From: an uncultured Candidatus Saccharibacteria bacterium
GTDB lineage: Bacteria; Patescibacteriota; Minisyncoccia; Phycocordibacterales; UBA6899
Length of the DNA: 64,000 nt
Direction: 5' to 3'
Assembly (NCBI GenBank): GCA_964386905.1
Contig: CAYLUP010000002.1
Coordinates: 64,522-128,521 of the forward strand
Made by a program: the position numbers and the translations under genes. Position 1 is the first letter of the stretch; every line of letters begins with the position of its first letter. Positions 5,657 through 64,000 of this stretch are shown here, one piece after another. Below the pieces are notes generated by a model. That model made no database searches and was not told the DNA's origin. It saw only the letters and a list, made by a program, of their open reading frames with translations.

Positions 5657-5657
5657 A

Positions 5658-6788: not shown

Positions 6789-6790
6789 AA

Positions 6791-8224: not shown

Positions 8225-8242
8225 GACAAAATAAGCAAGAAA

Positions 8243-8269: not shown

Positions 8270-8304
8270 CATGCAAAAAGTTTCATTTATGTTACTCTTG
8301 GTAT

Positions 8305-9321: not shown

Positions 9322-9346
9322 AAAACACCTTTTGGTGTTTTTTTTA
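9322..9346. terminator. Bidirectional terminator: A-run, acacc-tttt-ggtgt, T-run.
   Basis: A symmetric hairpin flanked by an A-run and a T-run lies between the convergent genes 8305..9321 (+) and 9344..10126 (-). Confidence 0.55.
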
Positions 9347-10126: not shown

Positions 10127-10132
10127 AGTGAG

Positions 10133-10150
10133 AATATTATAGCATGAAAG
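10133..10150 (-). promoter_or_regulatory. Extended -10 promoter element (TGcTATAAT) for the DsbA-like gene.
   Basis: The reverse complement of 10127-10160 reads ...catgctataatattctcactATG. It contains a perfect TATAAT with an upstream TG, about 12 nt from the start codon, implying a short leader. Confidence 0.35.
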
Positions 10151-10169
10151 AGCGGTGGGTGGGGAGGAG

Positions 10170-10520
10170 TGATTAGGGAATACGGTGGTTAGTGGATAGT
10201 GGATGGTGGATAGGAAGAAAATGACTAAAGGGTGTGGGGTAAGGGAAAAGGGAGGGAGGAAGAAGTGAATAGTGGTACGTGAATAGAAAGTCATGAGTCA
10301 TGAGTCATCAGGTGTGAGAAGGAAGTATTTAGTATGCAGAATGAAGGACAATGTATTGTCATTGCGACGGCCCCGAGTCCGCGAGGGTCGGTGGCAATCC
10401 AGGACTGTGTTTGAGGATAGAGAATGGAGAAAGGTAAGAATGATTTATGATTTAAGAATTGTCATTGCGACAACCTTGAGTCTTCGAGAGTTGGTGGCAA
10501 TCCAGGATTGTATTTTGGGT
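10170..10520 (+). repeat. Composite intergenic repeat, upstream copy. It contains a purine-rich ggtggatRg microsatellite, a gagaatggagaaRggtaagaatgatttatgattta block, and two copies of a ~57-bp tgtcattgcgac...ggtggcaatccaggaYtgt element.
   Basis: The same blocks recur at 11262-11440 on the other side of engB. The 57-bp element is found at about 10352-10410, 10458-10512 and 11377-11434, and contains the imperfect inverted repeat attgcgac/gtggcaat. Confidence 0.6.
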
Positions 10521-10696
10521 ACAGGAGAAGGGGTATGGAGGATGGGGGCAGGAATCGAGTTCTATCCACAATCCACTTTCCACTATTCACCGCATCTCTT
10601 CTATGCTATTGTCATTTTATGCAGAAAAACTCTCAACAAAAATTGAATCGCATGGGCCCGTCTGGTTCTGTGAAAGCTGGTATTGGTCGCGCAGGC

Positions 10697-25430: not shown

Positions 25431-25457
25431 ATAAACACGCACGTGTTTATTTTTTTG
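25431..25457 (+). terminator. Rho-independent terminator: aaacac-gcac-gtgttt followed by a T-run.
   Basis: Palindrome plus a T-rich tail immediately after the TAA. Confidence 0.5.
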
Positions 25458-25502
25458 TGCATAACTTCAAAGGCGAAAGAGATTGCATGGTATACTAAGA
25501 GT

Positions 25503-44000: not shown

Positions 44001-44561
44001 ACACTTCAGTCAGCGTTTGATCCAAGTAAAATTCCATTTCAGGGAAATGTGCTTGTGGATATCGCGTTCCAATATCCTAAGGAGTTGCCAGTTTTCGACC
44101 GCAATACAAAAACGATAGATGAATATAAGATTTTGCATGCTGATGCATCAGAAGCGGGTATTGTTATCGCAAAAGATTCGCCAGTGCTGCTTGCGGTTCC
44201 AACAATTGTTACCGCACTAAAACAATTTAGTGAGAAGGAAGGTTATTATCCTCTCCGTATCGATCAACTCTTTACGCTGAAATACGTGAATAGTGATGCG
44301 ATCCCTCAAGAGATTCGTTCGCGAATTCTTTATGCTCCATATGCAAGGCAACCAAAAGAGGGAGAGTCATTTGCTGCATGTGTGGCAAAGAAGGGAATGT
44401 GCAGTTTTTACCACCTTGGAACGACACTTGAGCATATGCGCGCACAAGAGCTTCAGGCAGATGTAGATTTGGTTTCTTCAAAAATTCAAGGAGGGGATAC
44501 TTCAGGTTGTGCTGGTGAACAAAGTCGTGCTTGCTATGATGTTGTAGGCATTCTCGAATAG
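41097..44561 (+). CDS. Giant bitopic membrane protein (1154 aa). It has a small N-terminal helical domain, a ~650-aa Pro/Gln/Ala-rich disordered linker, one TM helix and a ~440-aa C-terminal extracytoplasmic domain. It sits immediately upstream of mreB.
   Basis: N-terminus MTTPELLEFIRIEHALGMSLAEITRLLVTEGEWDREDVAEAFRALGLP. Low-complexity PQ-rich region including VPQQQPPVVPVAAQPPPPPVAPQPQ. TM VSASIFFLAMSILLVLGLIFGIGYYIVVL. The C-terminal domain is globular. Confidence 0.55.
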   Translation: MRIMTTPELLEFIRIEHALGMSLAEITRLLVTEGEWDREDVAEAFRALGLPEEQAEEGYDQKNVAPPQSSDFASPVAPVTNGAQLELTQSSAPFEAQEPVVRHAPAPVSAPGPKDMEYPRHAAPMQYVEKPEEKPKPTLARPASLKPQAFRPMVRSTQNGMEVSAAQKHAHSQHGPTIHVSKLQHLGADTKHGPAPVPQIHKSKESIETKVVFGLDVPDDEPTPKKVVSPLATEILEPHAEIALSVQNTQEKEKISSDLSVQKTGPTSAVAIEKVQVSESHGTERKAEDSSQADEVLPKFDLASALLKQDGHADTQDDTSRAIEHPVADTVSDSVVIEEKGVARTELPISPIDANRQSQSLTTPSVDTQTPILNEKPHDTQEKSASIETTLHTETSPTHTEAPSSVEIHHKEEGAVEKQVHQQGDVSIGIPRHDTAPQSPLPAGTVVPQQQPPVVPVAAQPPPPPVAPQPQIIVVPANMFGAPQGFQFPEMPMQMAGMQPRMAPASPPTQYAPGSRVAEMNGVSPDVEEQAYLAQFGQAPMQQGIERPPQATIVSPTIIHAPQVNAPAMSTQQPVAHESILPPKPEPVRFDIGKVRSTQKGESPKSALRDSVESALASNGDLSDSHPVVSPIIKPDEEQIAAAAAHSLKVPQKRTMHADLLRIGEGVIPEQVVALGDKTDAVAGVALSDTEAFEQDSVPPPPQKKVSASIFFLAMSILLVLGLIFGIGYYIVVLKKPSAQSALSGALRGLFQDGAFSYNAVLQIHASSTDALLESLTVQANVMGTVVGRANMFEKSIHEGEFIMTQRGVPEPIHIEFQGSIIGQEKEVFLSQQKPTLNTPIEHLLPVSEWLRVPYAQLGEMLGFSGATESYDAVISETQLFQGFMEHFPIVARGPVTEISEGDRVLYRIPVSLDGGKMITLSDLVSRMLRGSTVVGTDSARRDVLLGRYDMISGELVVDKLKLHPIRLTLQSAFDPSKIPFQGNVLVDIAFQYPKELPVFDRNTKTIDEYKILHADASEAGIVIAKDSPVLLAVPTIVTALKQFSEKEGYYPLRIDQLFTLKYVNSDAIPQEIRSRILYAPYARQPKEGESFAACVAKKGMCSFYHLGTTLEHMRAQELQADVDLVSSKIQGGDTSGCAGEQSRACYDVVGILE

Positions 44562-48313: not shown

Positions 48314-51300
48314 ATGACCAAAACCTCGTGGAGGAACTGGTTTTCACGTTGCGTACGCAGGGTATTTTTCTCTTTGCGTGGCTTTTTCGTTGGGGCTCAG
48401 AATCATTCTGTCGTGCGTTTTGGTAGGAGGATTTGGGCACTTTTTCAGCAGTCGTTCCGAATGATTTCGACACAGAAGCGCTCAAAAATGGTGTGGATGT
48501 CTACTGCTGCTTTTGTGATTTTTCTTTCTGCAACAATGACCGTTTTTGCTTTGCGAGCGAAGGCGGAAAAAGAAGTTCACGCCTATATCAGTCCTTCGTA
48601 CGTGACCGGTGAGGGTTTTGAAAGAGTAGAAGCTGCACTTGTTCAGGATTTTTCTGTTGATGCGCGATTTTCTGATTTCACACCAGAATATGTTGCACGT
48701 GTCGCATTTGGCTCCTTTGCACAAACCGTAGAGGAGAGTGTTCAGGAGGAATTGCTTTCAAGCACAACAACGCCATCCGCAACGACGACAGAAAGCACGA
48801 GCGGTGCACCTGCAGATACTGGTGTTGTTCCTGCTGAAACAACGAGTGTTTCTGAGTCTTCGACCGTCCCAGCTTCAGAAGAAAGTTCTTCTGCGCCTTC
48901 TTTGGAAAATCCCATTGAAACAAATGGTGCTCAATCTGCACCAGAAGCACCGTCAACCGAACCGCTTTCATTTTTGCGTAGTATTGTTTCTCCAAAGACT
49001 ATCTTGGCTCAAGAGACACCAGAGAGTGCTCCTGTCTCTGTTGCCGAAGATACTCCTGAATCAACTCTCGTTGTCGAAGGAGTTGAAGCGGTGACTGCGC
49101 CTGTTCAAGATGACAACACTTTTTCGGTGGATGCGACTTCATCAGCAACAATTGTTTCTGATACGGTAAAAGAAGAAAAAGAAAATCGTGATCCATATGC
49201 GATTGCCTCGTGCTCTGTATTTTCTAAACCATGCCACATGGCTGTGTTTGAGGGCTTTGGAGTTGGCACGGAACTTTCTCAGTATCCTGTGAGAAATGCT
49301 GAGGTTGTATTTTCTGTTGCCGCAAAATCACTTCCAACAGAACAACACGATCGCCTTCTTGTCCGCGCGTATAAAAATGGTCGTTGGGTATTTTTGGGTG
49401 AGCATGTCGTTCGTGGTGAGACAGATAACGCATTTCGAGGAGGATATTTACGATTCCCACTTGAATTATCTTCATGGTCAGACTTGTCGGACATGATCGT
49501 AGTTGCTGAATATGTCCGTGAAGGCGAATCTGATTCAACTCTGTTGCTTGATGCTGCATGGGTGGACGTTGGTTTTGAGGCGGCAGAATCACCGGATGAT
49601 CTTGCATTGTTCTCTCCAAATGTAAAAAGCGCGTTGCTTTCTCGCGACGCAGAGCGTCGTGCAAAGGAGCGAGATACGCTTGATGTCGGTGCAGGTGCTG
49701 TTGTGCATTTTGAGAACACTATTTCTGATCTTCCGAGTGCAAAACTCCGCGTGGCAACAACGAAGGAAAAACATGCAGTTTTGGGAACAGGAGAAGAGTA
49801 TGTCGCGGTGACCAATTTTAGTAATGCAACCGAACAGGTGCGTTTGTCCTTTTTCTTCCCAGACGGAAATGGTCGAGTGACCTCACTTTCGAAATATGTT
49901 CATAATGCGCCGGTAAAAAATGTTGAGACAGAGGTGACTCCTATTGCATATGTGTGTGAGTCACCTTGGGTAATAGCATCTTCATCCCTCGACGTATCTT
50001 CAAATGAAGATGTTGGGATTTCTGAGTACACATGTCTGCAGACAGAAGAGAAGCGCTCATGTGCATCGCTTTCGGATGATGCAACAAACTGTTACTCAGA
50101 AGTGACGACAATGACTGACGCAAATGCGACCGTTTTCAGACGCGGGTTTTATGTCGATGCGATCACCGGGGGTCCGTTCTCTGATGAACAGAGCATATTT
50201 GGAAAGGCACTCAGTGCTTTGCTTCTTGATATGCCAGAAGGAATTATTCCATCATCATCTGCTGAGGTGTCTCATAGCCAGACGTACGATATCGAACCCG
50301 GAGCAACAAAGTATTTTAAATTCGCATACAATGTCCCATTAAATGCACGGAGCGATGTGTACATTCAAGCAGTCTCTTCTGGCGGTGCATATGGACTCTC
50401 AAAAATTGTTGCAGATGGATCATGGAACTGGAGGGTCCCTGTGGATGTCGGACTTCCATACGCAACGTTTGGAGAGGAGGCTGTTGTGCCGATTTCTTTG
50501 GATCGTATGCCTCAAGAGTTTTGGACAACGGTACATGAAGATGGCTTAGATATTCGTGTATCTGATGAGCGTGGCGTTGTTGAGCTCCCATCATGGGTAT
50601 CGGAGTTCAATTTTGCGCAACGGAAAGGGCTTGTATGGGTGCGATTGCCACATGGTTCTGGGGTCATGCCTCGCGTCTATCTCTATGCAGGGAACTCTGA
50701 AGCAGCCTCGAAGATGGCTCCAGAAAAACCTTTTCTTTCATCCAGTCTCATTGAGAGGGCCGTTGTGATGTCAGAAGACGAAGAGGTGTCTTCGGTGAAG
50801 ATCACTGCGCTTGCTGATGATACGCGTGTCCGCGTCGGAGATGCTGCGGAAAAGAATCTTGTGTACGGTGAGACTGTTCTTTATGAACATGTTCCTCACG
50901 GTGCACTCGTCTATGCAAATGGTCCAGTTGCTGTCCATGCGCTATCGTTGTCGTCTCGTGCCATTGCATTACCTTTTGGTGTGGCAGGGAACGAGTTCGG
51001 TATTGCGGAGAAGTATGGTGAGTTTTATGTTGCATCGACACGTCCAGAGGAATCAGCGCTTTCTCTTGATCAGAACGAAGAGGTACTTGTCCCATACGGT
51101 CTGACACATTTCTCAGAACACGAAAGTTCTGCTTTTTCGGTACGTCTTCCTTCTGTTGCCGCGTTGTTTGATGAACAAGAAATTCTCCCTCTTCTCTCGA
51201 GGACATCTGACGAGAGGTTGCGTTTTTCTGCTTCTGCTCTGCTCGATCAAAAGGCTGATGCTGTTCGTGCTGTTTGTCCGAATGGGTATGCATACGGCGT

Positions 51301-54300
51301 ATTTGACGTCTCTGGCGCATCTCTTGCAACGACAACTTGTGGAAATATCCTCAATGGTCCATTTGAACACGGCATGCTCCTTCGTGTTCTTCCGACTGTA
51401 GGAAAAACGTCTCCTGGTGCTCTGTTCTCCTACGTACTCCGAGGGAATGAGTATCCTATGCTTCAGTCTGCTGCGCTTTCGCGTGGGACTGCAGGGTTTG
51501 ATCCAGAGGTTGCTTTTGGAGCACCAGAGTTTGTGGTCCCAGGAGAGCATCGCATATTTGATATTGAAGGAGAGAAAGAGCGTGCGCATGTGAGTCGTTT
51601 TCTGAGTAAACAGCGAGAATTTGCTGCTGAAGAAAATCCAACATTCCGTTTTCAATATGTTCCTCAGTCAGGAGGGTTTTTCCGTACTCTCCGCTCTTTG
51701 GTTGGTGCAGCTCCTTTTGCAATTACGAATGTCTCGGTAGAGCAAGCGGGCGCAGTGCTCCCAATCACCCCTGTTGTTTCTTATGGGTCATCTCTTGAGT
51801 GGACGGTGACTATTGACAAGAAAGAAGCAACAAAGATTGTTCCTGGGAAATTACTTCTACGGATGACGATTAAAGAAGGCGGTCAGACCTACGAAGATGT
51901 GTATGATTTTTATTGGGGACTTCTTGCGGTGAATTTCAATAAAGCAACATACGAGCAAGGAGAGATAGCAGACATCTGGTTGGGGGCATTGTCAGAAACA
52001 GGAAACACTGTCTGTGATGCAAAACTCAAAATCTTCATCACTGATACTGCGAGTTCGACTGTTGAAGTTCCCGTAGTGCAGTCGGGAAAGTGTGATGGTA
52101 ATTCCGTTGTTGATGTTCCGGATTATTCCGCGTCATATCCCGTAGTTGATGTTGGCGTCCATTCTGTGCGCGTATTGCGTCTTGATGAACAAGATAATGT
52201 TATTGCAGAAGTGCGAAGTCACTTTAATGCCGTGTCCCGTTCTCCTTTTGTCATTGAGAGAAAGGGCCCAACGCGTATTAATCCGACCGCTCCCTACAGC
52301 ATGACGCTTCGCGTATTTGCACGTGAAGCTTATGAGGGGCAAATTGTTGAGCAGATTCCTGCTGATTTTGAGGTACTTGAAAGAGGTGGATCGACGTTGC
52401 GCTGGAAGGACGATTCTCAACAAATTAAAGAAGCGGTATGGTCTGTCAAGATGAAAGCTGGGGAAATCTATCAGTTTACCTATACGTTTGATGCTGCTGA
52501 CAAATCGCCGTACATCTATTTCCTCGGCCCTGCTCGTATTGGTGATACAGATTCGTTGTATATTGAGCCTCGTGAGTGGCAAATTGCATCTGACGTCGCA
52601 GGAAACATGCTCATCTACTGGGATGGTGGAACGACTCCACCAGGGTGGACATGTGTATCGTGTCTCGGCACTGATCCGTTCTATCAACGGTACCCAATGG
52701 GATCATCAACTCCGAGCATTAATGGTGGCGCAACAACACATACCCATACGTTTACGACATCGGTCAGTTCTGCGATTTACTCAACGTCAATTTTGGTGAA
52801 TACGGGAATTCCAGCAACATTGGTGTATAAGGACCACACACATGCGTTTACTCCGACATTTGCCACAGGCTCAAATCTTCCACCATCCATGTCTTTGCGC
52901 ATCTTGCGAGCGAACGCAGTGGGTGATGTTCCTATTCCGCAAAATGCAATTGTGATGTTTGAATCTACTCCTCCGTCTGGATGGACAACATATAGTACGT
53001 TGGATGGAAATTTCCCATATGGTGATTCTGGTATTTTCAATACGCAAGGAAGTGCGACTCATAGCCATGCACTTTCTGGCACACTTGGTACATATAGTGG
53101 AGGTTCGCTCTATCGCAGTACAACTTTTGGAATATACCCGAAGGTTGCGAATACTACTCACGGACATGCAGTCACAGCAACATCAACGAACACAATTTCA
53201 AATGACCCTCCATACGTGACATACATGCTCGGAAAAGCAAGCGCTGCAGGGGCACTTCCAAATGGAGCGATTACGATGTGGGATAACGACCCTGCTTCTG
53301 GATGGGTGCATTTGTCTGTCGATGGTGCGGTAATGAGTAATCGTTTTGTGAAGGCGATGAGTTCTGCAGGTGCAACGGGAGGGTTATCACATCACGAGCA
53401 TACAGATACGACCAATATCCCAACTGGAGCATCGAATTCAAATACAAGTTCTGCATCACTTTCTGGATCTTTTGGATCAAATCCAAATCATACACATACT
53501 GTTGACTATACCCTCTTTTCTGATGCAGTTACCCTTCCTCCATATCGTACGGTTGTCTTTGCAAAAAGAAGTGTTGGCGTGCCAGAATTTACACAAACAG
53601 CTTTCCGGTTTTACGATAATGTAAATGACCCACTTCCAGTTGATCCATGGCCAGCTGGTGCTGTAGATGTTGCAGAAGGGATGTCTATTGAAGATGTTGC
53701 TTATCGCATTAAGCCTGGTTCGACATTCAGACTTCGCGTCTCTGCACAAATCTCTAATGCAACAGCAACTGCAAGCACAACACCACTCAAACTTCAGTAT
53801 TCTACTGATGGGGCATGTTCTACTGCGCTCAACTGGAATGATGTTGGTACTCCTGGCGGCTCAGCTCCGCTTCGTGGATACGATAATACTCTTGTGTCAC
53901 AAGGCACTCAGTTGGCTAGTGTTGTATTGGCTTCAAGCACTTTGTCATCGGTGCAGTTCTATAGTGAATCTTCGTCAGCACAAGCATTCACACAGGATGC
54001 AGGAATTGGGACATATGCTGAGTTCGATTGGGTCTTGCAGGCAGGAACAAGTCTTGCATCATCTTCTCGATATTGTTTGCGTATGGTTGAGGGGAGTGGA
54101 AAAGTTTTCGGTCAATACAGCGCATTTCCAAGTTTTCTCTCAAATAGCGCGCCAATTGCTCCCGTGCTTCAGACACAATTTAATCATGCGAAGATCCTGA
54201 CGTTAACTCCGACGTTGACATTTGCAGCCTCGGATGAGGAGGGGAACCCAATGCACTATGCGATTGAAATTGACGATGATCCAAATTTTGGATCACCAGT

Positions 54301-57300
54301 CGTCTCGCATTCGACAACAAATAACTCAGCATATTTCAGCAACCTGACAACGCTAAGTAACAAAGCACCATATAACAACGCAGATACAATTCAGTACACT
54401 GTGCAGAATGGTGCGCTTGCGAATAATACAACGTATTGGTGGAGGGTTCGTGCGATGGATCCTACAGGCAGTACACAGTATGGGTTGTGGTCTAGCGCAC
54501 GTGCTTTTACAACGGACACTTCTCTCGCGACGTCGGCATGGTTCCAGACAACAGATGCACAGTTTGTACAAAATACGCTCGAGAATATTACTATTTCAGG
54601 AAATGCTGCACGGCTGACAGGGGGTCAAACCTCTGGCACGATGTATTCTCCTTCGATCGTCTTTAATGCGGGTCCAATGGGAACCGTATGGGGGAGTTTG
54701 CTCTTTACCGATGATGGGGGAGCTGGAATTACATACCAAGTTGAATACCAGGATGAGCAGCAGAACTGGGTTCTTATTCCAGACACTGCGTTATCTGGAA
54801 ATTCGACTGGGTTCGGAAGTTCCCCTGTGTCTCTTACAAGTGTTGACCCACAGTTTTATCCAGCAATTCGCCTGCGTGCAAATTTCACAAATAGTGGAAC
54901 GCCAGTACTTTCTGATTGGGGCGTGAATTGGGCATACAAAACACTTGCTCCAATCCTTTCATCACCATTCAATCATGCAAAGGTGAGTACAACTACACCA
55001 GCATTACTCTTTGCATCGACAGATCCATTGAATCGTCCAGTAACATACGAGGTACAGTACTCAACAGACCCGACATTTACCACTTCAACGACCTGTAATA
55101 GCGACTCTTCGTGTACTGCAGGTTTTAAGAATATTGATACCCCAGCAGACACTTCTCCGTTTACATCTGCAGAACGCGTCGAGTTTACCTTCCAAACTCC
55201 ACTAACAAATGGAACGACGTATTTTTACCGTGTTCGTGGATACGGCTTTGGAAGCGGGGCTTGGTCATTCTGGTCTGAAGTACGTGCATTCACTGTAGAT
55301 ACGGCAGCGACGACATACCCAACGTGGTTCCAAACGATGAAGGGACAATGGGATGCTGATACACTTTCTGGAACGTATGCAAACCCTTCTCATAGCGTCG
55401 CTGTTGCAACGACAAGTGATCGCGTGCTGGTGGTATATGGGGACGGCTCCAATAGTAGGCCGAAGTACCGATTTTACGAAAATGGTGTACTCGGCACGGC
55501 AAAGGAGATGCTTTCCATTAACTCGACTGTGCTTTGGGCGGTAGCACGACCCTCACTTGTTAATGACCAGTTTGTGGTTGGAACAATGGGGGCTGACCGT
55601 GATGTGCGATTTCAGGTGTTTGAAAATGGCATTTGGTCACGACTCTTTACTCTGACCGATACATCACCTTCCGACAAGAGGCGAAGTTTTGATGTTGCGT
55701 ATGAATCGCAAAGTGGTCGTGCAGTGGCTGTTGCTTGCAGTGGCACAGATGCAGTCTATGCAATATTTGACGGTTCTACCTGGGGAAGTGTACAGAATCT
55801 CGATTTACCTTTTACAACAAACTGCGAACTGGTAAAGATGGCTTCAAGCCCAACACAGAATCAGATTATTGCGCTCTTCCGCAACACTGGTTCAACATTT
55901 CGTGCAGAGGTATGGAATGGAACTCAGTGGGATAATGGTTCCGCAATGAGTTTCAGCGCTTCCGCACAGATTCAAGAGCCAGCGCACGATGGTATGGCGA
56001 TTGAGTATGAACGAACGAGTGGGAAGGCAGTTGCGGTTGTATCAAATAACACGACGAGAGGATTTCGATATCGTGTATGGAGTGGAAACAACTGGGGTAC
56101 AGAGACCGCGTATGCGCTTCTCGGGGGAAACGATGGAAATAGAACAAATGCGCAATTCGAATGGGGAAATTTGAGACGCAGTCCAACAAGTAATGATTTG
56201 ATGCTTTGTGGCATCTCACAGTATTCTCCGACAGATGATGGTGCATATACGGAATTTGTTCGATGGAATGCAGTAACACCAGCATGGGAGCCAACAACGG
56301 CTTCAAAACTTGGTGAATACTGGCCATATTCTCGCCATGCGCAATCAAATGATTGTGTTTATGAAACGAAATCAGGACGTGCAAACAAACTCGTATATGT
56401 TGCTGATGAATCATGGCAGGTTGCTGACGGAAGTGCCTCATACAATAGAACTATATTTGACGTACTTTCTAATACGACAAATATGGCAAGCGCTTGGCAA
56501 TCTGGAGCATCATATACTACTCGAATTTGGTCTACGTATGCTGCATATCGATGGTATGCGGGAGAGACATGGACATCACGTCTTGAACGAGCATCGTACT
56601 CTGGAGATATTTTAGGGATTTCCTTAATGCGAAATTCTTTGAGCTATATTTTCCGTATGTGGAATGGTTCTGCCTGGTCTTCCGCAATTACGATGGGTGC
56701 ATCTTCTGTAACGACAAAGCCGTATGGTCAGCCGTATGACATGTCTGCGCAGCAAGGACTAACCCAAGGAAAAGTATTTTCATCTCCAATCGTTTTTGCA
56801 GATGGAAATGGTCCTTCATGGAGACAGGCCCGCTTTACCACGACACGACCTGTTGGGACAACGGCATTGATTTCTGTTGAATATGAATCGTCTCCTGGGA
56901 ATTGGGAACGAGTTCCAGATGCGGTTATTCCTGGAAACTCAACAGGAACATCAACAAGCCCGATTGATTTATCTGGCTTGAACTCTTCCGTCTACAGTGT
57001 GATTCGCCTCCGTGCGGATTTAACCTGTAATGGTTTTGCTACATGTCCAACTCTTGATGACTGGACAGTGGAGTGGGCGGCGGGTCTTAATATTTCTGGT
57101 ATTGCACGAGACAATGATCGTACGACTGCACTTACGAGTGGTACGGTAAAGGTCGCCGTAAACGGTGTTGAGCAGGTTGGAAAAACAGGGGCAATTTCTG
57201 GAACAGGAACATGGACAATTTCTGGCGTGAACTACAAGAATGGAGAGACTGTTACTGTGTGGATCGACAATCCAGGAGTAGCAAATCGCGCTGTTTCTGT

Positions 57301-60300
57301 TGTAAAGTATGCTGGTGCCGGAAATCTCTCAAATGTGGAGTTGTCACGACGCTGGCTCACGATTGGTGATTCGGGACAGGCTGGACAAACAATCACAAAT
57401 GCAGATCTGAAGCTGTTTGATAATTATAATGAATCATTAGCCCAAACACGTGCGGACATCTTCTTTAATGTCGACGGTTCAGACAATCTTACTGCATGTG
57501 CAAGTGCACCGTGTAGTGATGCGTCTATCGTCGTGGCAACAGGAACAACCTGGAGGCCGAAAGCATCAGGAACAAGTGTAAGTACACTTTCTTCTCTTGT
57601 ATTAAATGGAGAGGTGACAGCTGATGCAAATACGATAAAGATTGGAGGTGATTGGAGGAATACAGGAACATTTACCCCTGGAACATCTGTTGTGATTTTT
57701 ACTGCAACCTCAAGTACACGAATACTCAATAATACAGGTGCTGCACAATACAAATTTTACTCAGTGACATTCGGAGAGGGTTCGTCTTCAGCGACATGGC
57801 AATTGCAATCACCGCTGTACACGAATGGAGATCTTGTGGTGAATTATGGTACGCTTTCTCCGCTTTCACAGCCTATTTCGATTGAGAAGAGTTTATCTCT
57901 TGGTTCGAACGGGGTATTCCTAAAGGGGACAGCAACAACAACATTCCTTGGAACTGCTGTTGCGACATGGTCTGACTTGACTGCTCTGCAGCAAGACATG
58001 GGAAATGTGCTTGTTGATGGTTCGCCAAAGACACTTACCCTAAGTACCCCCGCAAAAGCAACCTCACTCACCATTGCAGATGGAGATACGTTTGCATTTG
58101 GAGTGAACACGTTAACACTTTCTTCGCACTTCACAAATAATGGATATATTAATTCCGGTTCGGGGCGCCTCTCTATTGCCGCATCTGGAACAGCTAATGT
58201 GAAGCAGGGCGGACAGACGTTGAATAATGTGACACTTGCAAGCGGGACAGTGACTTGGATTGATGCACATGCAACAACCACGGGTGATCTCTTGATCTCG
58301 GGTGGGGCAGTAAACCTGCCGGCACAATCACTCGCGGTGGGAGGAAGCTTCTTGCACACGGCTGGATCTTTCGCAGCTCCGCTGACAACGCGCATGACAT
58401 CGAATGTATCAGGAAAGCAGCTTTCTCTTCTGTCGTCACTTCAGACTCTTGAGTTTGTTGGCACTGGAGCCTGGTCATTTATCTCATCAGCAACCACAAC
58501 TGGGACAACGAGTATCCAGTCTGGGTCTGTGACACTCCCTTCTGGCATACTCGCCGTTGGAGGAAATCTCGTCGTGTCTCCAACTGCGACATTGCAATCA
58601 AATACTGGGACAGTCAGAATGTATGGAGCATCTGCGACCATACAGCTCAACGGAAAACAGCTCTCATCTCTTGTTGTGGCATCTGGGTCTTCGGCGGCAC
58701 TACAAGATGCGACGGCGACATTCCTCGGGTCTCTTACTGTTGATGCTTCTGGCGTGTTTACTCCCGCATCAAGCAGCACCTTGACCATTGGCGGTTCGTT
58801 AATAAATAATGGATCATTTATTGCAAATGCATCTCATGTCATTATGAATCGTGCAGCAGGTCCTGCGACTCTGAGTATTGGTTCATCCATGTTGAGCAAG
58901 TTGACTATCTCTGGTGCGGGAAGTTTCAGTATTATAGGAAATACTCGCGTGACATCCGATTTCGCATTAGGAAATGTAGGAGCCTTTAGTATGGAGAGCG
59001 GACGCGAGTTACGAGTTGATGGGTTTTATACAACAACTGCACAACAGGCAAATACAACATGGACGGGGTCTACGCTGCGTTTGACTTCTGGCGCAACCAT
59101 GAGTGCAAACACAAAAACAACAGGTGGGGATAGTTACGGAAGTATCATTCTGGATGAAAATACTCAATTACGTTTATGGAACTCTGATGCAGTATCAATA
59201 ACAACGAATGCGGGAAGTAGCGTGTATGCGCAAAACTGGGCAAACGTATCGGGAGCGCTTCGCATTTATGGAACCTATACTCAGCAATCAGGTACTGCAT
59301 GGTGGAGTTATGCAACTGATTTTGATGGCACAGCACTTCCATCTGGAAGTGAGCGAACTGCTACTGTCGCCATTGCGCCAGGATCATCTGTCGCTTTTGC
59401 AACATCATCCGCTCTTGCTGTGATTGGAGATGCTGGCGCGTCAACCACAGTGGCAACGATTGGTGTAGGAAATTATGCTATGAGTTTTGCTTCGTCTACA
59501 CTCTCTGCCCAATTTGCAACATTCAGTGGTATGAATACCTCTGGACTCTCGTTGTCTGGTGCAACAAATATTGCAGTATTGAGCGATGTGTCGTTTACAA
59601 CTGATATTAATGCGGGAAATATCATGACGTTTACAGCGGATGTTGTAAACGCGAATGCAGGAGAACAGTATTATCGCGTCGGCTTTGACAGATCTTCTCT
59701 TTCTGCGACAAACATCCGTGTTTTGTCAGCAACAACGCAATCTCTTCGTTTTAAACAGCATTATGGAAATATTGACGGGGAATCATTTGACAATGATCCA
59801 ACGGGGAATCCAGGAGAAATTCGATGGGATGATTCAAATTATCTCATCACGATTTCAGGTACCGTTTATAGTGACGCAGGTGTCACGCCAATGGATGCTT
59901 CTGTTTGCGATGGAGCAACCCCAGCAGTAACGATAAAAGTTTCTGGTGGTGGATCTTTCACTGGTCCATGTGATGTTGGTGGGACATTTAGTATCCCTAA
60001 TGTCTCCTTTACTGGAGAAACAACGATGTCTATCTTCCTGGATGACACTGGTGCGCAGGCAGTAACGGTAACACGAGGCGCGTCTGTTGATTTGTCGGGA
60101 ATCCGGCTCTATCAAAATCGTGTCATTCTTCGTCATGAAGACGTGACCCCAATGACTATCGCAGCATTGTCTGATTTTGACGTGGATGATGATAGCGACA
60201 TGATCTTTACTGCAAATGGAGGTACTCTGTCTGTTCCAGGTACGGCTGAGCTTTGGGTTTGGAGTGGAAAAACATTCACTCCTGGGGGAAACGTGACAAC

Positions 60301-63300
60301 GGCAGCTGGTGGAACTATTGGATATGGTGGTGCGTTTCACTTAGACAATAGTGCCACTTATACCGCATCTTCTGGTGAAATTATCACCATAGGTGGACGA
60401 TTCCAAATGGATTCAAGCGCAATACTGAATGCTGCATCATCAACTTTTGTCTTTAATCCATCAGATACACGAACATTGACTGCAACCGCCCCAATTGTGT
60501 TCCATAATCTAGAGAAGACTGGCGTTGGAACACTAACCGTGAGTTCGACAATGGCAATCGGTGGTACATTCACGATTACAATGGGAACATTGTCTGGTGT
60601 TGGGAGTATTACTGCACAACAAGGGATAGTGGGAGATGGAACTGTATCTCTTACAGGGGGGACAGTGACGCTTCCCAATGGTGGATTCTTTGGTGGAAAT
60701 ACTGCCTGGACAGTCAATAATTTGGTTCTTGGAGATACGGGTACTTCTACAACCATAAAGACTGGAGCCGGGACAACGACAGTACGAGCATTACTCACAG
60801 TGAGGAGTCAACACAGTCTTGATCTCAATGCAACGCCCTTGGTGTTTACTGGATCAAATACTGTCCTGTCTGTTCTGGGATCTATTGATACTACCGGTGC
60901 AACCATTACTTATGCGCCAACAGGAACAGTGAGTGTTGCAAATATTCCGTATACCAATCTTTCTTTCATGGGAACAGGAACAAGCACCTTGCCTGCTATG
61001 CAGTTGCAGGTTGCTGGAAATATGACTATTGGAGGCGGAGCATCAACCCCAAAAGTGACAGCTCTGGTCAATGACCCAACAATTACCGTTGGCGGAAACA
61101 TTTCCATTGCCTCTGGCGCTCGATTTACTGCATCTGATGTTGGAACACTATTTGTTTCCGGGAGCTGGACAAATGCAGGAGTCTTTACACACTCACTTGG
61201 CTCTGTTCAGTTCACTGGGGGTGGAGTTAAGACAGTGAATCCAGGGTCCTCTCCGTTCGGGAATATTTCCTTCGCAGACGATCTTGGCTCATGGACTATT
61301 TTGGAAAATGCTACTGCTACAAATATGGTTATTGCGTCAACCTCTGCATTTACCATGGCAAGCGGGAGAACTTTGGAAATTACAGGAAGTTTCAGTAACG
61401 CTGTTGGTGGCACTGCGACAACATGGACTGGTGCAACGCTGTTTGTGAATAGTGGAACACGTTCGGAAATAAATACAAAGACTGCAGGTGCTGATACGTA
61501 TGATATTGTTCGTGTTGGGGCTAATACACAGACAGTGTTCTGGAACTCATCATCAACGCAGTTTGTTGCACAGCCTACTGGTGGTGCACTTTCTCTGAAT
61601 CACGCAGGAATCGCTGGTGATGCCTATGTGTTTGGTGATTACACTCGAAGCACGGGCACAGAGTATTGGAGTTATTACAAGGATTTTGATGGAGCAGTCT
61701 TAAATGCGGGTGACTTACGAGCTCCACGGATTCGATTCGCACCATCTTCTACAGCATCATTTGTTGGTACAAGTGCGATTGAACTTGTTGGTGTTGCTTC
61801 TGCAACAACAACTGTTGAGGCGCTCTCAGGGTCCTACGGATTGAATTTTGGTGGGGCAACATCAACACTTCAGTTTGTAGATTTCTCTGGCATGAATGCA
61901 ACAGGCATTCAGTTTACTGGTTCTGGAAAAGTGACACAGTTTGATGATATTGTGCTTCGAAACCCTTCTGGGGTTGGGACAATGGTGTCTCTTGCAGCCT
62001 CTGTCATTACGGCAAATCCACTTCGTACAACGTATCGCAATGCATTCATTGCACCAGGCGGAACAAATATTTCTGTGACTGGAACAACAACATCCGCTTG
62101 GCGTATTCGCAACCACTACGGTGGGAGAGATGGTGAAGCGTTTGATGGTGATCCTGCAGGAGATCCGGGATATGTTATTTGGGATGATTCTGCTGCACAG
62201 ATTTATATTTCTGGAAAAGTACTCCAAAGTGATGGTGTAACAGTGTCGTCTGCGTGTAATGGTGTTTCTCAGTATGTTGCATTAAAAGTGCAAGGGTCTG
62301 GAACATTGACGTCTGCATGTAGTGCTGTTGATGGGAGTTACTCAATCGGTCCGATTGTATATGCTCCGTATGACACTCTTGCTGTATACACTACAGCTGC
62401 AAGCGGGGTTCAGGCGGTTTCATATGCATACCGTCCGATGACGAATATTGGTGATTATGATTTGTACGAACGTACGATTATCCTTCGAAATGAACAAGAT
62501 GCGATTACCAATGCCGGCATAAACTCCTATGATAAAGATAATGACGCAAATATCCCGGTACGGGTGACGGGGAGTGCGCTCGTTACAGATACAAATTCGA
62601 AAGTCATCGTCTGGGATGGAAAGAAATACCAGCCACAAGGATCAGTCACTGTAGGAAGCAACATGAATGCTTCCTCTATCGACGGAGACGTTGAACTGCG
62701 TACGCAGGCATCTTGGATAACTGGTGCTGGGGAACAATACACCATTGGAGGAGACCTTGTTGTTCTTTCACAAGGCCAGGTTCTTGGTATGTCGGGAGAA
62801 TTCATCTTTACTTCGGCTGTTGCCGGGAAATCAGTGTCAGCGCTTTCTTCTACAACGTTGCCGTCACTTCGCTTTAATGGTACGGGGAGCTGGTCTCTGT
62901 CTGGTTTCGCATCAACCACTGGGACACTTCTCGTTTCTCAGGGAACCGTAGCGCTCCCGGCAAGCACCTTCGGTATTGGTGGGAGTTTCACTAATCAGGG
63001 TACTGTACAATCAAATAACGGAACACTATTCTTTGAGGCAACAACAACAGGGAATCAGATTCGCACAAATGGGAGCACATTTGGAACGCTTCTATTTACG
63101 GGAGTGGGCTCATGGGAGTTTATGGATTCCGCAACCACGACTGGGGCATTCACTGTTGCGTCTGGTACCGTGAAGCTTCCGGCAGGATCGTTATCTGTTG
63201 GTCTCGACTTCGAGAATACTGGAGGTTCGTTTATCGCAAACGGTGGTACGGTCATTGTGCGTGGAGCTGGCACACGGAAGGTCGCTCCGGGCGGGTCAGC

Positions 63301-64000
63301 TTTCCACACACTTCGAGTTGAAAATGGGGATTATGTACTTGGTGTACAGCATGCAACATCGACTGGCGATGTGACTGTTGCTTCGGGTTCACTTGAATTA
63401 CCAACGGAGCGATTCGCTGTTGGGGGTTCATTCAGAAATTCGGGAACCTTTATTGCAGGCGCTTCGTCGACTGTAATCATGAATGCGACATCAACAGGGA
63501 AGATTATAAACCCAGGAACATCATCATTTACCCATGTCATTGTTCAGGGTCCTGGGGGTGGATTCACGTTGGAGTCTAGTGCGACAAGTACGGGGGCATT
63601 TGAAATAAAAACAGCAAATGCATTCGTTGTCTCGCCATCGGTTCGATTGGTGGTTCGTGAGCAGTTCTTGAATGCTGTTGGTGGTACGTGGACCGGGTCT
63701 ACGCTCAGATTAGAGAAGGTGGGAACATCAACCATAAACCTGAAGACAGACCCGGGTGCGGCATATAATACTGTTGAGCTTGGTCCTGGTGCACAGGTTC
63801 GCTCGTGGAAGTCATCTTATGGAACCGTAAACTTCGCATCGTCTTCTGCAATCTATTCACAGAATGACAATAACGTAAATGGCGCACTTCGTATCTATGG
63901 AGAGTATCGCAATACTGCGACAACAGACCACTGGTCCGCAACAACTGACTTTGATGGCTCCGCAGTCGCATCTCGTGCAGCCTCTGTCCGATTTGCATCT
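48314..64000 (+). CDS. Giant cell-surface protein gene, 3'-partial. It has at least 5229 codons in the window and is absent from the ORF track because it has no in-window stop.
   Basis: Frame open from TAG at 48287-48289 to the window end; the ATG-to-stop track lists no frame-2 ORF anywhere in 48.3-64 kb. I checked about 12 kb of lines by hand at 48314-53580, 56641, 58981, 60301, 62221 and 62461-62580. Start is uncertain: the first ATG is at 48314, and candidates 48461 or 48488 precede the signal/TM MVWMSTAAFVIFLSATMTVFAL. The product has an acidic S/T/P-rich linker, Cys-containing domains, three phage-tail-collar-like HxH modules, Fn3-like pairs (FNHAK...YWWRVRA), W-rich propeller-like repeats, prealbumin-like domains (ISGTVYSDAGV...), beta-helix-like T/G/S-rich repeats and ~2.3-kb super-repeats. 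The small ORFs listed on both strands here are overlap shadows of this frame. Confidence 0.75.
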   Translation, partial: MTKTSWRNWFSRCVRRVFFSLRGFFVGAQNHSVVRFGRRIWALFQQSFRMISTQKRSKMVWMSTAAFVIFLSATMTVFALRAKAEKEVHAYISPSYVTGEGFERVEAALVQDFSVDARFSDFTPEYVARVAFGSFAQTVEESVQEELLSSTTTPSATTTESTSGAPADTGVVPAETTSVSESSTVPASEESSSAPSLENPIETNGAQSAPEAPSTEPLSFLRSIVSPKTILAQETPESAPVSVAEDTPESTLVVEGVEAVTAPVQDDNTFSVDATSSATIVSDTVKEEKENRDPYAIASCSVFSKPCHMAVFEGFGVGTELSQYPVRNAEVVFSVAAKSLPTEQHDRLLVRAYKNGRWVFLGEHVVRGETDNAFRGGYLRFPLELSSWSDLSDMIVVAEYVREGESDSTLLLDAAWVDVGFEAAESPDDLALFSPNVKSALLSRDAERRAKERDTLDVGAGAVVHFENTISDLPSAKLRVATTKEKHAVLGTGEEYVAVTNFSNATEQVRLSFFFPDGNGRVTSLSKYVHNAPVKNVETEVTPIAYVCESPWVIASSSLDVSSNEDVGISEYTCLQTEEKRSCASLSDDATNCYSEVTTMTDANATVFRRGFYVDAITGGPFSDEQSIFGKALSALLLDMPEGIIPSSSAEVSHSQTYDIEPGATKYFKFAYNVPLNARSDVYIQAVSSGGAYGLSKIVADGSWNWRVPVDVGLPYATFGEEAVVPISLDRMPQEFWTTVHEDGLDIRVSDERGVVELPSWVSEFNFAQRKGLVWVRLPHGSGVMPRVYLYAGNSEAASKMAPEKPFLSSSLIERAVVMSEDEEVSSVKITALADDTRVRVGDAAEKNLVYGETVLYEHVPHGALVYANGPVAVHALSLSSRAIALPFGVAGNEFGIAEKYGEFYVASTRPEESALSLDQNEEVLVPYGLTHFSEHESSAFSVRLPSVAALFDEQEILPLLSRTSDERLRFSASALLDQKADAVRAVCPNGYAYGVFDVSGASLATTTCGNILNGPFEHGMLLRVLPTVGKTSPGALFSYVLRGNEYPMLQSAALSRGTAGFDPEVAFGAPEFVVPGEHRIFDIEGEKERAHVSRFLSKQREFAAEENPTFRFQYVPQSGGFFRTLRSLVGAAPFAITNVSVEQAGAVLPITPVVSYGSSLEWTVTIDKKEATKIVPGKLLLRMTIKEGGQTYEDVYDFYWGLLAVNFNKATYEQGEIADIWLGALSETGNTVCDAKLKIFITDTASSTVEVPVVQSGKCDGNSVVDVPDYSASYPVVDVGVHSVRVLRLDEQDNVIAEVRSHFNAVSRSPFVIERKGPTRINPTAPYSMTLRVFAREAYEGQIVEQIPADFEVLERGGSTLRWKDDSQQIKEAVWSVKMKAGEIYQFTYTFDAADKSPYIYFLGPARIGDTDSLYIEPREWQIASDVAGNMLIYWDGGTTPPGWTCVSCLGTDPFYQRYPMGSSTPSINGGATTHTHTFTTSVSSAIYSTSILVNTGIPATLVYKDHTHAFTPTFATGSNLPPSMSLRILRANAVGDVPIPQNAIVMFESTPPSGWTTYSTLDGNFPYGDSGIFNTQGSATHSHALSGTLGTYSGGSLYRSTTFGIYPKVANTTHGHAVTATSTNTISNDPPYVTYMLGKASAAGALPNGAITMWDNDPASGWVHLSVDGAVMSNRFVKAMSSAGATGGLSHHEHTDTTNIPTGASNSNTSSASLSGSFGSNPNHTHTVDYTLFSDAVTLPPYRTVVFAKRSVGVPEFTQTAFRFYDNVNDPLPVDPWPAGAVDVAEGMSIEDVAYRIKPGSTFRLRVSAQISNATATASTTPLKLQYSTDGACSTALNWNDVGTPGGSAPLRGYDNTLVSQGTQLASVVLASSTLSSVQFYSESSSAQAFTQDAGIGTYAEFDWVLQAGTSLASSSRYCLRMVEGSGKVFGQYSAFPSFLSNSAPIAPVLQTQFNHAKILTLTPTLTFAASDEEGNPMHYAIEIDDDPNFGSPVVSHSTTNNSAYFSNLTTLSNKAPYNNADTIQYTVQNGALANNTTYWWRVRAMDPTGSTQYGLWSSARAFTTDTSLATSAWFQTTDAQFVQNTLENITISGNAARLTGGQTSGTMYSPSIVFNAGPMGTVWGSLLFTDDGGAGITYQVEYQDEQQNWVLIPDTALSGNSTGFGSSPVSLTSVDPQFYPAIRLRANFTNSGTPVLSDWGVNWAYKTLAPILSSPFNHAKVSTTTPALLFASTDPLNRPVTYEVQYSTDPTFTTSTTCNSDSSCTAGFKNIDTPADTSPFTSAERVEFTFQTPLTNGTTYFYRVRGYGFGSGAWSFWSEVRAFTVDTAATTYPTWFQTMKGQWDADTLSGTYANPSHSVAVATTSDRVLVVYGDGSNSRPKYRFYENGVLGTAKEMLSINSTVLWAVARPSLVNDQFVVGTMGADRDVRFQVFENGIWSRLFTLTDTSPSDKRRSFDVAYESQSGRAVAVACSGTDAVYAIFDGSTWGSVQNLDLPFTTNCELVKMASSPTQNQIIALFRNTGSTFRAEVWNGTQWDNGSAMSFSASAQIQEPAHDGMAIEYERTSGKAVAVVSNNTTRGFRYRVWSGNNWGTETAYALLGGNDGNRTNAQFEWGNLRRSPTSNDLMLCGISQYSPTDDGAYTEFVRWNAVTPAWEPTTASKLGEYWPYSRHAQSNDCVYETKSGRANKLVYVADESWQVADGSASYNRTIFDVLSNTTNMASAWQSGASYTTRIWSTYAAYRWYAGETWTSRLERASYSGDILGISLMRNSLSYIFRMWNGSAWSSAITMGASSVTTKPYGQPYDMSAQQGLTQGKVFSSPIVFADGNGPSWRQARFTTTRPVGTTALISVEYESSPGNWERVPDAVIPGNSTGTSTSPIDLSGLNSSVYSVIRLRADLTCNGFATCPTLDDWTVEWAAGLNISGIARDNDRTTALTSGTVKVAVNGVEQVGKTGAISGTGTWTISGVNYKNGETVTVWIDNPGVANRAVSVVKYAGAGNLSNVELSRRWLTIGDSGQAGQTITNADLKLFDNYNESLAQTRADIFFNVDGSDNLTACASAPCSDASIVVATGTTWRPKASGTSVSTLSSLVLNGEVTADANTIKIGGDWRNTGTFTPGTSVVIFTATSSTRILNNTGAAQYKFYSVTFGEGSSSATWQLQSPLYTNGDLVVNYGTLSPLSQPISIEKSLSLGSNGVFLKGTATTTFLGTAVATWSDLTALQQDMGNVLVDGSPKTLTLSTPAKATSLTIADGDTFAFGVNTLTLSSHFTNNGYINSGSGRLSIAASGTANVKQGGQTLNNVTLASGTVTWIDAHATTTGDLLISGGAVNLPAQSLAVGGSFLHTAGSFAAPLTTRMTSNVSGKQLSLLSSLQTLEFVGTGAWSFISSATTTGTTSIQSGSVTLPSGILAVGGNLVVSPTATLQSNTGTVRMYGASATIQLNGKQLSSLVVASGSSAALQDATATFLGSLTVDASGVFTPASSSTLTIGGSLINNGSFIANASHVIMNRAAGPATLSIGSSMLSKLTISGAGSFSIIGNTRVTSDFALGNVGAFSMESGRELRVDGFYTTTAQQANTTWTGSTLRLTSGATMSANTKTTGGDSYGSIILDENTQLRLWNSDAVSITTNAGSSVYAQNWANVSGALRIYGTYTQQSGTAWWSYATDFDGTALPSGSERTATVAIAPGSSVAFATSSALAVIGDAGASTTVATIGVGNYAMSFASSTLSAQFATFSGMNTSGLSLSGATNIAVLSDVSFTTDINAGNIMTFTADVVNANAGEQYYRVGFDRSSLSATNIRVLSATTQSLRFKQHYGNIDGESFDNDPTGNPGEIRWDDSNYLITISGTVYSDAGVTPMDASVCDGATPAVTIKVSGGGSFTGPCDVGGTFSIPNVSFTGETTMSIFLDDTGAQAVTVTRGASVDLSGIRLYQNRVILRHEDVTPMTIAALSDFDVDDDSDMIFTANGGTLSVPGTAELWVWSGKTFTPGGNVTTAAGGTIGYGGAFHLDNSATYTASSGEIITIGGRFQMDSSAILNAASSTFVFNPSDTRTLTATAPIVFHNLEKTGVGTLTVSSTMAIGGTFTITMGTLSGVGSITAQQGIVGDGTVSLTGGTVTLPNGGFFGGNTAWTVNNLVLGDTGTSTTIKTGAGTTTVRALLTVRSQHSLDLNATPLVFTGSNTVLSVLGSIDTTGATITYAPTGTVSVANIPYTNLSFMGTGTSTLPAMQLQVAGNMTIGGGASTPKVTALVNDPTITVGGNISIASGARFTASDVGTLFVSGSWTNAGVFTHSLGSVQFTGGGVKTVNPGSSPFGNISFADDLGSWTILENATATNMVIASTSAFTMASGRTLEITGSFSNAVGGTATTWTGATLFVNSGTRSEINTKTAGADTYDIVRVGANTQTVFWNSSSTQFVAQPTGGALSLNHAGIAGDAYVFGDYTRSTGTEYWSYYKDFDGAVLNAGDLRAPRIRFAPSSTASFVGTSAIELVGVASATTTVEALSGSYGLNFGGATSTLQFVDFSGMNATGIQFTGSGKVTQFDDIVLRNPSGVGTMVSLAASVITANPLRTTYRNAFIAPGGTNISVTGTTTSAWRIRNHYGGRDGEAFDGDPAGDPGYVIWDDSAAQIYISGKVLQSDGVTVSSACNGVSQYVALKVQGSGTLTSACSAVDGSYSIGPIVYAPYDTLAVYTTAASGVQAVSYAYRPMTNIGDYDLYERTIILRNEQDAITNAGINSYDKDNDANIPVRVTGSALVTDTNSKVIVWDGKKYQPQGSVTVGSNMNASSIDGDVELRTQASWITGAGEQYTIGGDLVVLSQGQVLGMSGEFIFTSAVAGKSVSALSSTTLPSLRFNGTGSWSLSGFASTTGTLLVSQGTVALPASTFGIGGSFTNQGTVQSNNGTLFFEATTTGNQIRTNGSTFGTLLFTGVGSWEFMDSATTTGAFTVASGTVKLPAGSLSVGLDFENTGGSFIANGGTVIVRGAGTRKVAPGGSAFHTLRVENGDYVLGVQHATSTGDVTVASGSLELPTERFAVGGSFRNSGTFIAGASSTVIMNATSTGKIINPGTSSFTHVIVQGPGGGFTLESSATSTGAFEIKTANAFVVSPSVRLVVREQFLNAVGGTWTGSTLRLEKVGTSTINLKTDPGAAYNTVELGPGAQVRSWKSSYGTVNFASSSAIYSQNDNNVNGALRIYGEYRNTATTDHWSATTDFDGSAVASRAASVRFAS
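52600..53580 (+). other. Triple phage tail-collar-like (MdpB-type) module inside the giant CDS.
   Basis: Three consecutive ~95-aa units: IYWDGGTTPPGWTCVSCLGTDPFYQRYPMGSSTPSINGGATTHTHTF; IVMFESTPPSGWTTYSTLDGNFPYGDSGIFNTQGSATHSHAL; ITMWDNDPASGWVHLSVDGAVMSNRFVKAMSSAGATGGLSHHEHTD. A trailing NPNHTHTVDY follows. The pattern (hydrophobic-x-W/F ... PxGW ... G ... G ... HxH) is that of phage tail collar domains. Confidence 0.5.
59050..61420 (+). repeat. Super-repeat copy A (~2.37 kb, ~790 aa) within the giant CDS.
   Basis: Ordered markers TWTGSTLRLTSGATMSANTKTTGGDSYG ... DFDGTALPSGSERTATVAIAPGSS ... SAQFATFSGMNTSGLSLSGATN ... HYGNIDGESFDNDPTGNPGEIRWDDSNYLITISGTVYSDAGV recur in the same order in copy B. 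Confidence 0.6.
61420..63690 (+). repeat. Super-repeat copy B (~2.27 kb) within the giant CDS.
   Basis: TWTGATLFVNSGTRSEINTKTAGADTYD ... DFDGAVLNAGDLRAPRIRFAPSST ... TLQFVDFSGMNATGIQFTGSGK ... HYGGRDGEAFDGDPAGDPGYVIWDDSAAQIYISGKVLQSDGV. Each marker is collinear with copy A at a ~2.3-2.4-kb offset. The DNA has diverged while the protein shows moderate identity. Confidence 0.6.
63690..64000 (+). repeat. Super-repeat copy C (start only; continues beyond the window).
   Basis: TWTGSTLRLEKVGTSTINLKTDPGAAYN ... YGEYRNTATTDHWSATTDFDGSAVASRAASVRFAS repeats the opening markers of copies A and B. Confidence 0.5.

Follow-up and report, generated by a model that had tools for sequence, protein, structure and literature searches.

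A giant open reading frame (ORF) in a 64,000-nucleotide stretch of DNA from an uncultured Candidatus Saccharibacteria bacterium (contig CAYLUP010000002.1, positions 64,522 to 128,521; hereafter the window) encodes a module of three tandem units, each with two histidine-x-histidine (HxH) motifs, that we regard as remote relatives of the collar domains of phage tail fibres. Our reading, to which we give a probability of about 60%, is that the module is an ancient single-chain pseudo-trimer of the phage collar/HxH tip, which would hold two stacked six-histidine (His6) metal sites and form a rigid binding knob on a surface protein. The units belong to a large family in which they apparently always come in threes, and this family is uncatalogued: the Pfam (2025 copy), PHROGs and NCBIfam libraries that we tested do not cover it.

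Residues 1437-1764 of the giant protein (nucleotides 52589-53581) consist of three tandem units of ~108 residues each. In window coordinates, the module and its parts are as follows.

52586..53587, + strand: the whole three-unit module as modelled with AlphaFold2 (residues 1433-1766)
52589..52921, + strand: unit 1, with PPGW at 52637-52648 and HxH at 52739-52747 and 52835-52843; 69.2 bits against a hidden Markov model (HMM) of 479 units
52931..53248, + strand: unit 2, with PPSGW at 52970-52984 and HxH at 53060-53068 and 53159-53167; 82.1 bits
53252..53581, + strand: unit 3, with PASGW at 53291-53305 and HxH at 53393-53401 and 53489-53497; 79.1 bits

Every unit presents its elements in the same order: a beta-strand (I-x-M-W/F), P-x-G-W, (R)F-P-x-G, GG, three residues and an HxH, followed by a variable loop rich in Ser, Thr and Gly, a second HxH, P-P-Y and a final hydrophobic strand. 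The first strand and PxGW read IYWD..PPGW, IVMFE..PPSGW and ITMWD..PASGW in units 1, 2 and 3, the second HxH reads HTHAF, HGHAV and HTHTV, and the closing strands (LPPSMSLRILR, DPPYVTYMLGK and LPPYRTVVFAK) align to IPPFCSVFFIIK of the fibre family discussed below. All six HxH motifs of the giant protein, and 14 of its 58 histidines, fall in these ~330 residues. Because the units are just 29-31% identical to one another, they are linked by the family profile and not by pairwise BLAST; applied to a six-frame translation of the window, the family HMM finds exactly three units (E 1e-22 to 1e-26) and no other match. An earlier note on this DNA, made from the letters alone, had placed three tandem units at 52600-53580 and quoted from them PPGW...GGATTHTHTF, PPSGW...SATHSHAL and PASGW...GGLSHHEHTD. 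All three strings are present and the coordinates are good to ~10 bases; the note missed the second HxH and the closing PPY/PPS strand of each unit.

The same note had matched the units to the collar domain of phage tail fibres and MdpB-type proteins, an assignment that stands as remote homology and fails as a direct match to a curated profile. Searches of Pfam (including Collar, PF07484), PHROGs and NCBIfam gave nothing relevant to tail-collar or tail-fibre families for the region or for single units (PF07484 none at E<=1), and 0 of 27 family modules match PF07484 at E<=10, the gathering score of that family being 24 bits. The relationship is bridged by the fibre gp60 of phage PaP4, which is identical to the Pa223 fibre (PDB 9nxk). 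This protein scores a sub-threshold 20.3 bits against PF07484, its homologues include PF07484-positive members and members annotated as 'microcystin-dependent protein', and 9nxk_A was the sole match of the unit profile among PDB sequences (E 2.5). When the profile of the 479 units was aligned with the Pa223/PaP4 gp60 family by HHalign, the probability was 98.1% (E 1.4e-13, score 79, 92 columns), and the alignment runs the full length of both the unit and the C-terminal domain of the fibre. Control templates (reversed, column-shuffled and block-shuffled) scored just 8-24, so composition does not explain the match.

The first strand and PxGW of the unit align to GMVIMW..IPAGW in the fibre family and to GAIMMW..LPSDAW in T4 gp12. 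Absent is the helix with its 'LPDLRGR' loop, the core of the 57-residue PF07484 model: PxGW leads to (R)FPxG in ~10-17 residues, which leaves a gap in the alignment to the fibre and to gp12. Because it lacks this core segment, the unit lies outside PF07484 as now defined. We conclude that it is a remote member of the tail-collar/MdpB-type superfamily of fibre domains, in trimmed form.

The family to which the module belongs is large. A word-indexed search returned six relatives alone; when HMMER was run exhaustively over 1.84 billion representative proteins, 2,793 matched at E<=1e-3, of which 1,210 reached E<=1e-10 and 378 reached E<=1e-30. Units were counted in 156 proteins, made up of the best 150 and the first six relatives. 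Exactly three units occur in 119 of the 156, and 21 have six, arranged as two triplets or in one consecutive run. Six members with an apparent '2+2' (or 8-unit) arrangement are, on inspection, triplets in which unit 2 is broken by an insertion of 120-380 residues in the loop between its HxH motifs (P0046, P0050, P0083, P0011, P0105 and P0020; the insert is Gly-rich where inspected).

Not only the number of units but also their order is fixed. The best cross-protein match of a unit keeps its position in nearly every case (1 to 1 in 144 of 149, 2 to 2 in 139 of 149, 3 to 3 in 145 of 149), and the window module behaves likewise: its unit 1 is closest to a unit 1 in P0077, its unit 2 to unit 2 of P0078, a DUF2341 protein of Paceibacterota and the nearest named relative, and its unit 3 to a unit 3 in P0037. 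Since the order is fixed and the units within a module are ~36% identical across the family, we conclude that the triplication dates far back and that the three units are inherited together. Conservation over the 479 units is 94-98% at the four His positions, 97% for W, 85% for P of PxGW, 99% for the first P of PPY and 89% for Y. Six HxH motifs are present in 87 of 149 modules and five in 46 of 149.

Carriers of the module range from 325 to 6,510 residues. DUF2341 lies directly upstream of the triplet in many smaller members, with co-occurrence in P0003-P0006, P0023 and P0029, and many of the small members have the triplet as their principal or sole domain behind DUF2341. Organism names were available for four of 20 proteins looked up, the named members including a metagenome-assembled genome (MAG) of Paceibacterota, which belongs to the candidate phyla radiation (CPR), a Woesearchaeota (DPANN) archaeon and an Actinomycetota MAG. 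The relatives search with the window module alone yielded one MAG orthologue, in SKS1.bin43. This protein is collinear with the window protein, with 55% identity over 3,551 residues, and has the module at the same place with 56% identity. The names that NCBI gives to the carriers are 'DUF2341 domain-containing' or 'hypothetical' only. In the literature we found no paper linking tail-collar domains to giant proteins of CPR bacteria or DPANN archaea, and no description of the module.

A confident structure was predicted for the triplet and not for a single unit. From 27 aligned modules, AlphaFold2 predicts the 334-residue triplet as an all-beta chain with a mean predicted local distance difference test score (pLDDT) of 84.4 and a predicted template modelling score (pTM) of 0.79. 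The HxH regions exceed a pLDDT of 90, and values under 50 occur in three loops between HxH motifs only. The model has no helix of four or more residues, and its closing strands are at model residues 101-109, 210-218 and 320-328. A pTM of 0.79 for a chain of this length would imply that the three units are held in a fixed arrangement and are not independent beads. The lone unit was predicted with a pLDDT of 62 and a pTM of 0.40; in that model structure is limited to the three collar strands, the HxH region having none.

Single-chain fold searches of the PDB gave no significant match. In BFVD, a collection of predicted viral structures, Foldseek returned four matches only at E<=1e-3, and all four are tail-fibre, tail-collar or tail-module proteins: Pas29 (E 2.8e-15) and Pas28 (E 1.6e-14) of Actinoplanes phage phiAsp2, with a query TM-score (TMq) of 0.56 over ~430 alignment columns, a 'Phage tail collar domain containing protein' (E 4.4e-4) and an Aeromonas phage tail fibre (E 6.2e-4). 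Sequence searches led to the same phage. A tblastn search of 50,697 phage records matched phiAsp2 alone; a second, more consensus-like module gave no match among the phages, and a scan of IMG/VR with the conserved unit-3 pattern found no relatives. Both Pas28 and Pas29 are matched by the unit HMM, PSGWTR..LDG.FPRG..TGGATTHSHT being among the stretches matched, and neither has a Pfam match; the annotation of Pas29 describes it as possibly receptor-recognising and notes its HxH motifs. No other phage protein showed similarity to the whole module. Like the module, the two apparently have several units per chain, but their units are longer (130-170 residues) and contain extra HxH motifs, the identity is ~22%, and the two proteins are encoded in a phage tail operon. 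The two genes are adjacent (L004, Pas29 at 7755-10565 and Pas28 at 3847-7722) and may represent a phage counterpart of the single-chain pseudo-trimer.

Comparison with better-known fibres suggests how such a module could be built. The HxH motif in these systems is a metal-binding element: three symmetry-related HxH motifs together make an octahedral His6 site on the three-fold axis, which holds Fe2+ in T4 gp37, P2 gpV and R-pyocins and Zn2+ in T4 gp12 (PMC6116203). In the tip of T4 gp37, the shaft of the R-pyocin fibre and the spike P2 gpV, repeated HxH motifs form stacked octahedral His6-Fe sites along the three-fold axis, and the role suggested for His6 sites in the fibres and spikes of phages is to nucleate the trimer or to stiffen it (PMC6116203). 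The likeness drawn here between our module and gp37, the R-pyocin fibre and gpV is one of the HxH motif; all three are homotrimers, built as triple beta-helices or needles.

The fibre gp60 of the Bruynoghevirus phages Pa223 and PaP4 is closer, as it shares with the unit the IxMW strand, PxGW, FPxG, GG, HxH, second HxH and PP(F/Y) closing strand. It is a homotrimer, and its C-terminus resembles the gp37 tip (bioRxiv 10.1101/2025.06.11.659172). Each gp60 chain contributes one unit to a homotrimer, whereas the window protein has three units in one chain. The fibre domain is also ~45 residues longer, with a segment between PxGW and FPxG and with 17 instead of three residues from GG to HxH, and it is borne on the virion, unlike the window protein, which is predicted to sit on the cell surface. 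T4 gp12 (PF07484; PDB 1H6W/1OCY) is more distant. From its sequence, it shares the first strand and PxxW, the GG...HxH and the closing hydrophobic strand with the unit, all in the same order, but it has the helix and LPDMRG loop, one HxH in place of two and a large head domain before the last strand, and it is a homotrimer. Compared as a single sequence with the unit profile, gp12 aligned over 21 columns, the first strand and PxxW only, with a probability of 25%. Judging by sequence position, its head domain appears to sit where the inserts of our family do, past the HxH region and ahead of the closing strand.

The repeat anatomy of the module, its remote homology to tail-fibre domains, the rule of three, the fixed unit order, the conserved histidines and the confident model of the triplet alone are all observed; taken with these likenesses, they lead us to infer the following arrangement, in which the packing, the metal and the adhesive role are proposals. 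One ~330-residue extracellular domain would have arisen from three ancient tandem copies of a trimmed tail-fibre 'collar + HxH' unit. Where a phage fibre assembles three identical chains with one unit each, fusion in one chain would replace trimerisation, and the three units may pack around a pseudo-three-fold axis. Indirectly, such packing is favoured by the rule of three, by the pTM of 0.79 for the triplet and by the lone-unit model, in which the HxH region does not fold. With two HxH motifs per unit, the module could form two stacked His6 sites, binding Fe2+ or Zn2+, that would clamp the fold. The Ser/Thr/Gly-rich loops between the HxH motifs would then be the exposed face that sets specificity; we read them as a hot spot for insertion and specificity because family members insert domains there. 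Placed on the membrane-anchored giant protein of a probable CPR (Paceibacterota-like) bacterium, such a module would most likely act as a rigid, metal-stabilised knob that binds a glycan or protein on the surface of another cell.

Several observations weigh against this arrangement. The contrast between the triplet and lone-unit models is not a clean control, because the alignment for the lone unit was shallower and mixed (16 versus 27 sequences). A full pair of His6 sites is not obligatory, since one or two HxH motifs are missing from ~40% of modules. In the HHalign alignment, moreover, a fibre HxH is paired with the second HxH of the unit alone, and the first HxH of the unit lies four residues past GG as against 17 residues in the fibre family.

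Of the possible roles, adhesion or recognition is most likely, a metal-clamped structural joint would be its main rival, and catalysis is unlikely. As a joint, the module would stiffen or extend the giant protein without any binding specificity. We consider this improbable but worth keeping in view: the buried HxH metals of phage fibres are seen as elements of folding and stiffness, not as receptor contacts (PMC6116203), and the module lies in the middle of its protein (residues 1433-1766 of more than 5,230) and not at a tip. On the other hand, the loops between the HxH motifs are hypervariable in length and sequence and are the site of extra domains, a pattern expected of a specificity surface, and a spacer fits poorly with the many small members in which little but the triplet follows DUF2341.

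The earlier note had proposed that the module was either a phage-derived recruit for cell-cell contact or a tailocin legacy. The recent capture of a tail-fibre receptor-binding cassette from a prophage or tailocin by a host surface gene would account for the homology to tail-fibre domains and for the whole-module relatives in the tail genes of a cultured phage, phiAsp2. The rest of the evidence speaks against it and leaves it very little room. The module is present, with constant unit order, in at least 2,793 protein clusters, a large and ancient family found overwhelmingly in cellular MAG contexts, and it and the remainder of the protein have diverged equally from the SKS1.bin43 orthologue (56% versus 55% identity). 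Its GC content does not deviate (0.46 versus ~0.45 in the flanks). None of the other window ORFs scanned matched a phage-related Pfam family, and no tail, baseplate, sheath or prophage genes were found beside the giant ORF. Among the 50,697 phage records, phiAsp2 stands alone, and neither the second module nor the IMG/VR pattern scan added to it. The note had also held such a module to be unexpected in a housekeeping neighbourhood. It was right about the neighbours, since the genes upstream of the giant ORF are mreB, holB-like, frr and rseP, of which it had named all but mreB. However, P0004 also sits among cysS, recR, dnaX and rseP, and P0001 is likewise in a cellular context; because housekeeping surroundings are usual for the family, the argument from neighbourhood carries no weight.

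Giant proteins of predatory or episymbiotic bacteria often bear lytic domains, and the twelve near-invariant histidines per module could in principle form a catalytic metal centre, such as that of a hydrolase or oxidase acting on cell-wall polymers. We think this highly unlikely, given that the module has no similarity to enzyme families in Pfam, NCBIfam or the PDB and no conserved acidic or nucleophilic residues beside the histidines, and that all its detectable relatives are fibre proteins, whose HxH sites are saturated by six histidines and buried (PMC6116203). A chance resemblance, in which a low-complexity repeat rich in Ser, Thr, Gly and His mimics a collar domain, could appeal to the S-, T- and G-rich sequence, to the lack of matches in curated HMM libraries and to the non-significant PDB fold searches, but is scarcely credible, being refuted by the reversed and shuffled HHalign controls (8-24 at the same composition, against 79) and opposed by the Foldseek matches to phage tail proteins in BFVD (E 2.8e-15 and 1.6e-14) and by the collinear order of the motifs (beta1, PxGW, FPxG, GG, HxH, HxH and the PPY strand).

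The protein that carries the module is itself very large. The reading frame through position 52601 has no stop codon between 48290 and the window end, a length of more than 5,237 codons, and a start at ATG 48314 is matched by an independent gene call on a public contig. Besides the triplet, its features include the following.

48314..64000, + strand: giant ORF carrying the module, more than 5,230 residues, first ATG at 48314, open at the window end
48497..48562, + strand: N-terminal hydrophobic segment MSTAAFVIFLSATMTVFAL, a putative signal-anchor or signal peptide, residues ~70-91, identified by eye from the translation
50540..50713, + strand: DUF2341 (PF10102), residues ~751-808; Pfam match of 30.3 bits (cut-off 23.4; E 5.9e-7)

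The single N-terminal hydrophobic segment predicts that the carrier is a membrane-anchored surface protein. Beyond residue 1960, Pfam indicates FN3-like or Ig-like domains, followed by long repetitive beta-rich regions. In its length of more than 5,000 residues, N-terminal anchor and DUF2341, the carrier resembles the giant DUF2341/FhaB proteins of Patescibacteria, which have been proposed to serve in adhesion or host interaction (PMC11809585); that paper does not mention the triplet HxH module, and DUF2341 is a distinct domain. A knob like that of a phage receptor-binding protein would suit such a role.

Downstream of the triplet, at 54170-55300 (residues ~1960-2340), are two FN3 or purple-acid-phosphatase-N-like domains, each starting '...FNHAK..T.TP.L.F...', with borderline Pfam matches to Ig_Rha78A_N and Pur_ac_phosph_N; an Ig_Rha78A_N domain also lies downstream of the triplet in the family member P0029. 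The C-terminal half (57590-64000, residues ~3100-5237) is made of super-repeats of ~780 residues, as illustrated by IRWDDSNYLITISGTVYSDAGV near residue 3845, which comes back as VIWDDSAAQIYISGKVLQSDGV near residue 4620. The super-repeats are spaced by beta-helix-like repeats rich in Gly, Thr and Ser, are without a Pfam match, and several of them align to the C-terminal region of the SKS1.bin43 orthologue.

Elsewhere in the window, the ORF at 14335-15816 encodes FN3 and PAP_N-like domains. Large ORFs (350-1,400 residues) without a Pfam match at E<=1e-5 or lower are found at 44-4240, 4481-9321, 12174-13466, 20148-22028, 25443-27125, 38964-40994 (- strand) and 41097-44561. A lack of Pfam matches is typical in poorly characterised lineages, CPR among them, and some of these ORFs may encode further surface proteins.

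Among the other family members, the closest small homologue is P0001 (contigs L001 / L002), a protein of 507 residues with 40% identity and a SipW-type signal peptide (AFFSDAETS). Its gene directly follows a Peptidase_M73/TasA-like gene and precedes an ORF of 176 residues, an arrangement which suggests that some triplet proteins may belong to TasA-like fibre operons. In P0027, an HxH-bearing stretch (residues 77-126) exceeds the Pfam threshold for the uncharacterised family YmaF (PF12788; 30.7 bits versus 27), the one notable result when Pfam was run on the 27 modules, and YmaF proteins may be additional relatives of the HxH fibre-tip fold.

To our knowledge, little is understood of how CPR and DPANN episymbionts recognise and hold their host cells, and most of their giant surface proteins have no annotation. 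What is new here is the single-chain, triplicated form of the tail-fibre collar/HxH domain, the rule of three and a large unannotated family that extends to giant proteins of uncultured bacteria and archaea, CPR and DPANN members among them; the fibre homology itself is unsurprising in kind. We tentatively extend our reading, as a possibility that we would not yet favour, to an obligate single-chain pseudo-trimer with two stacked His6 sites, constituting an uncatalogued family that ultrasmall episymbionts (CPR bacteria, DPANN archaea) and other uncultured prokaryotes would use as the equivalent of a phage receptor-binding tip to recognise partner cells, with loops and inserts setting the specificity.

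The module offers a testable handle on episymbiont recognition, as a conserved domain of ~320 residues with clear motifs, a confident prediction and receptor-recognising phage analogues. With a profile of the 479 units, at least 2,800 protein clusters could be annotated in a region where Pfam 2025 leaves them blank. By triplication, a homotrimeric viral fold may become a monomeric domain free to be placed at any point of a multidomain protein, and this would let the three faces diverge, a divergence with which the conserved unit order is consistent. If the extended reading is true, cells and phages would share, and perhaps exchange, one architecture for receptor recognition.

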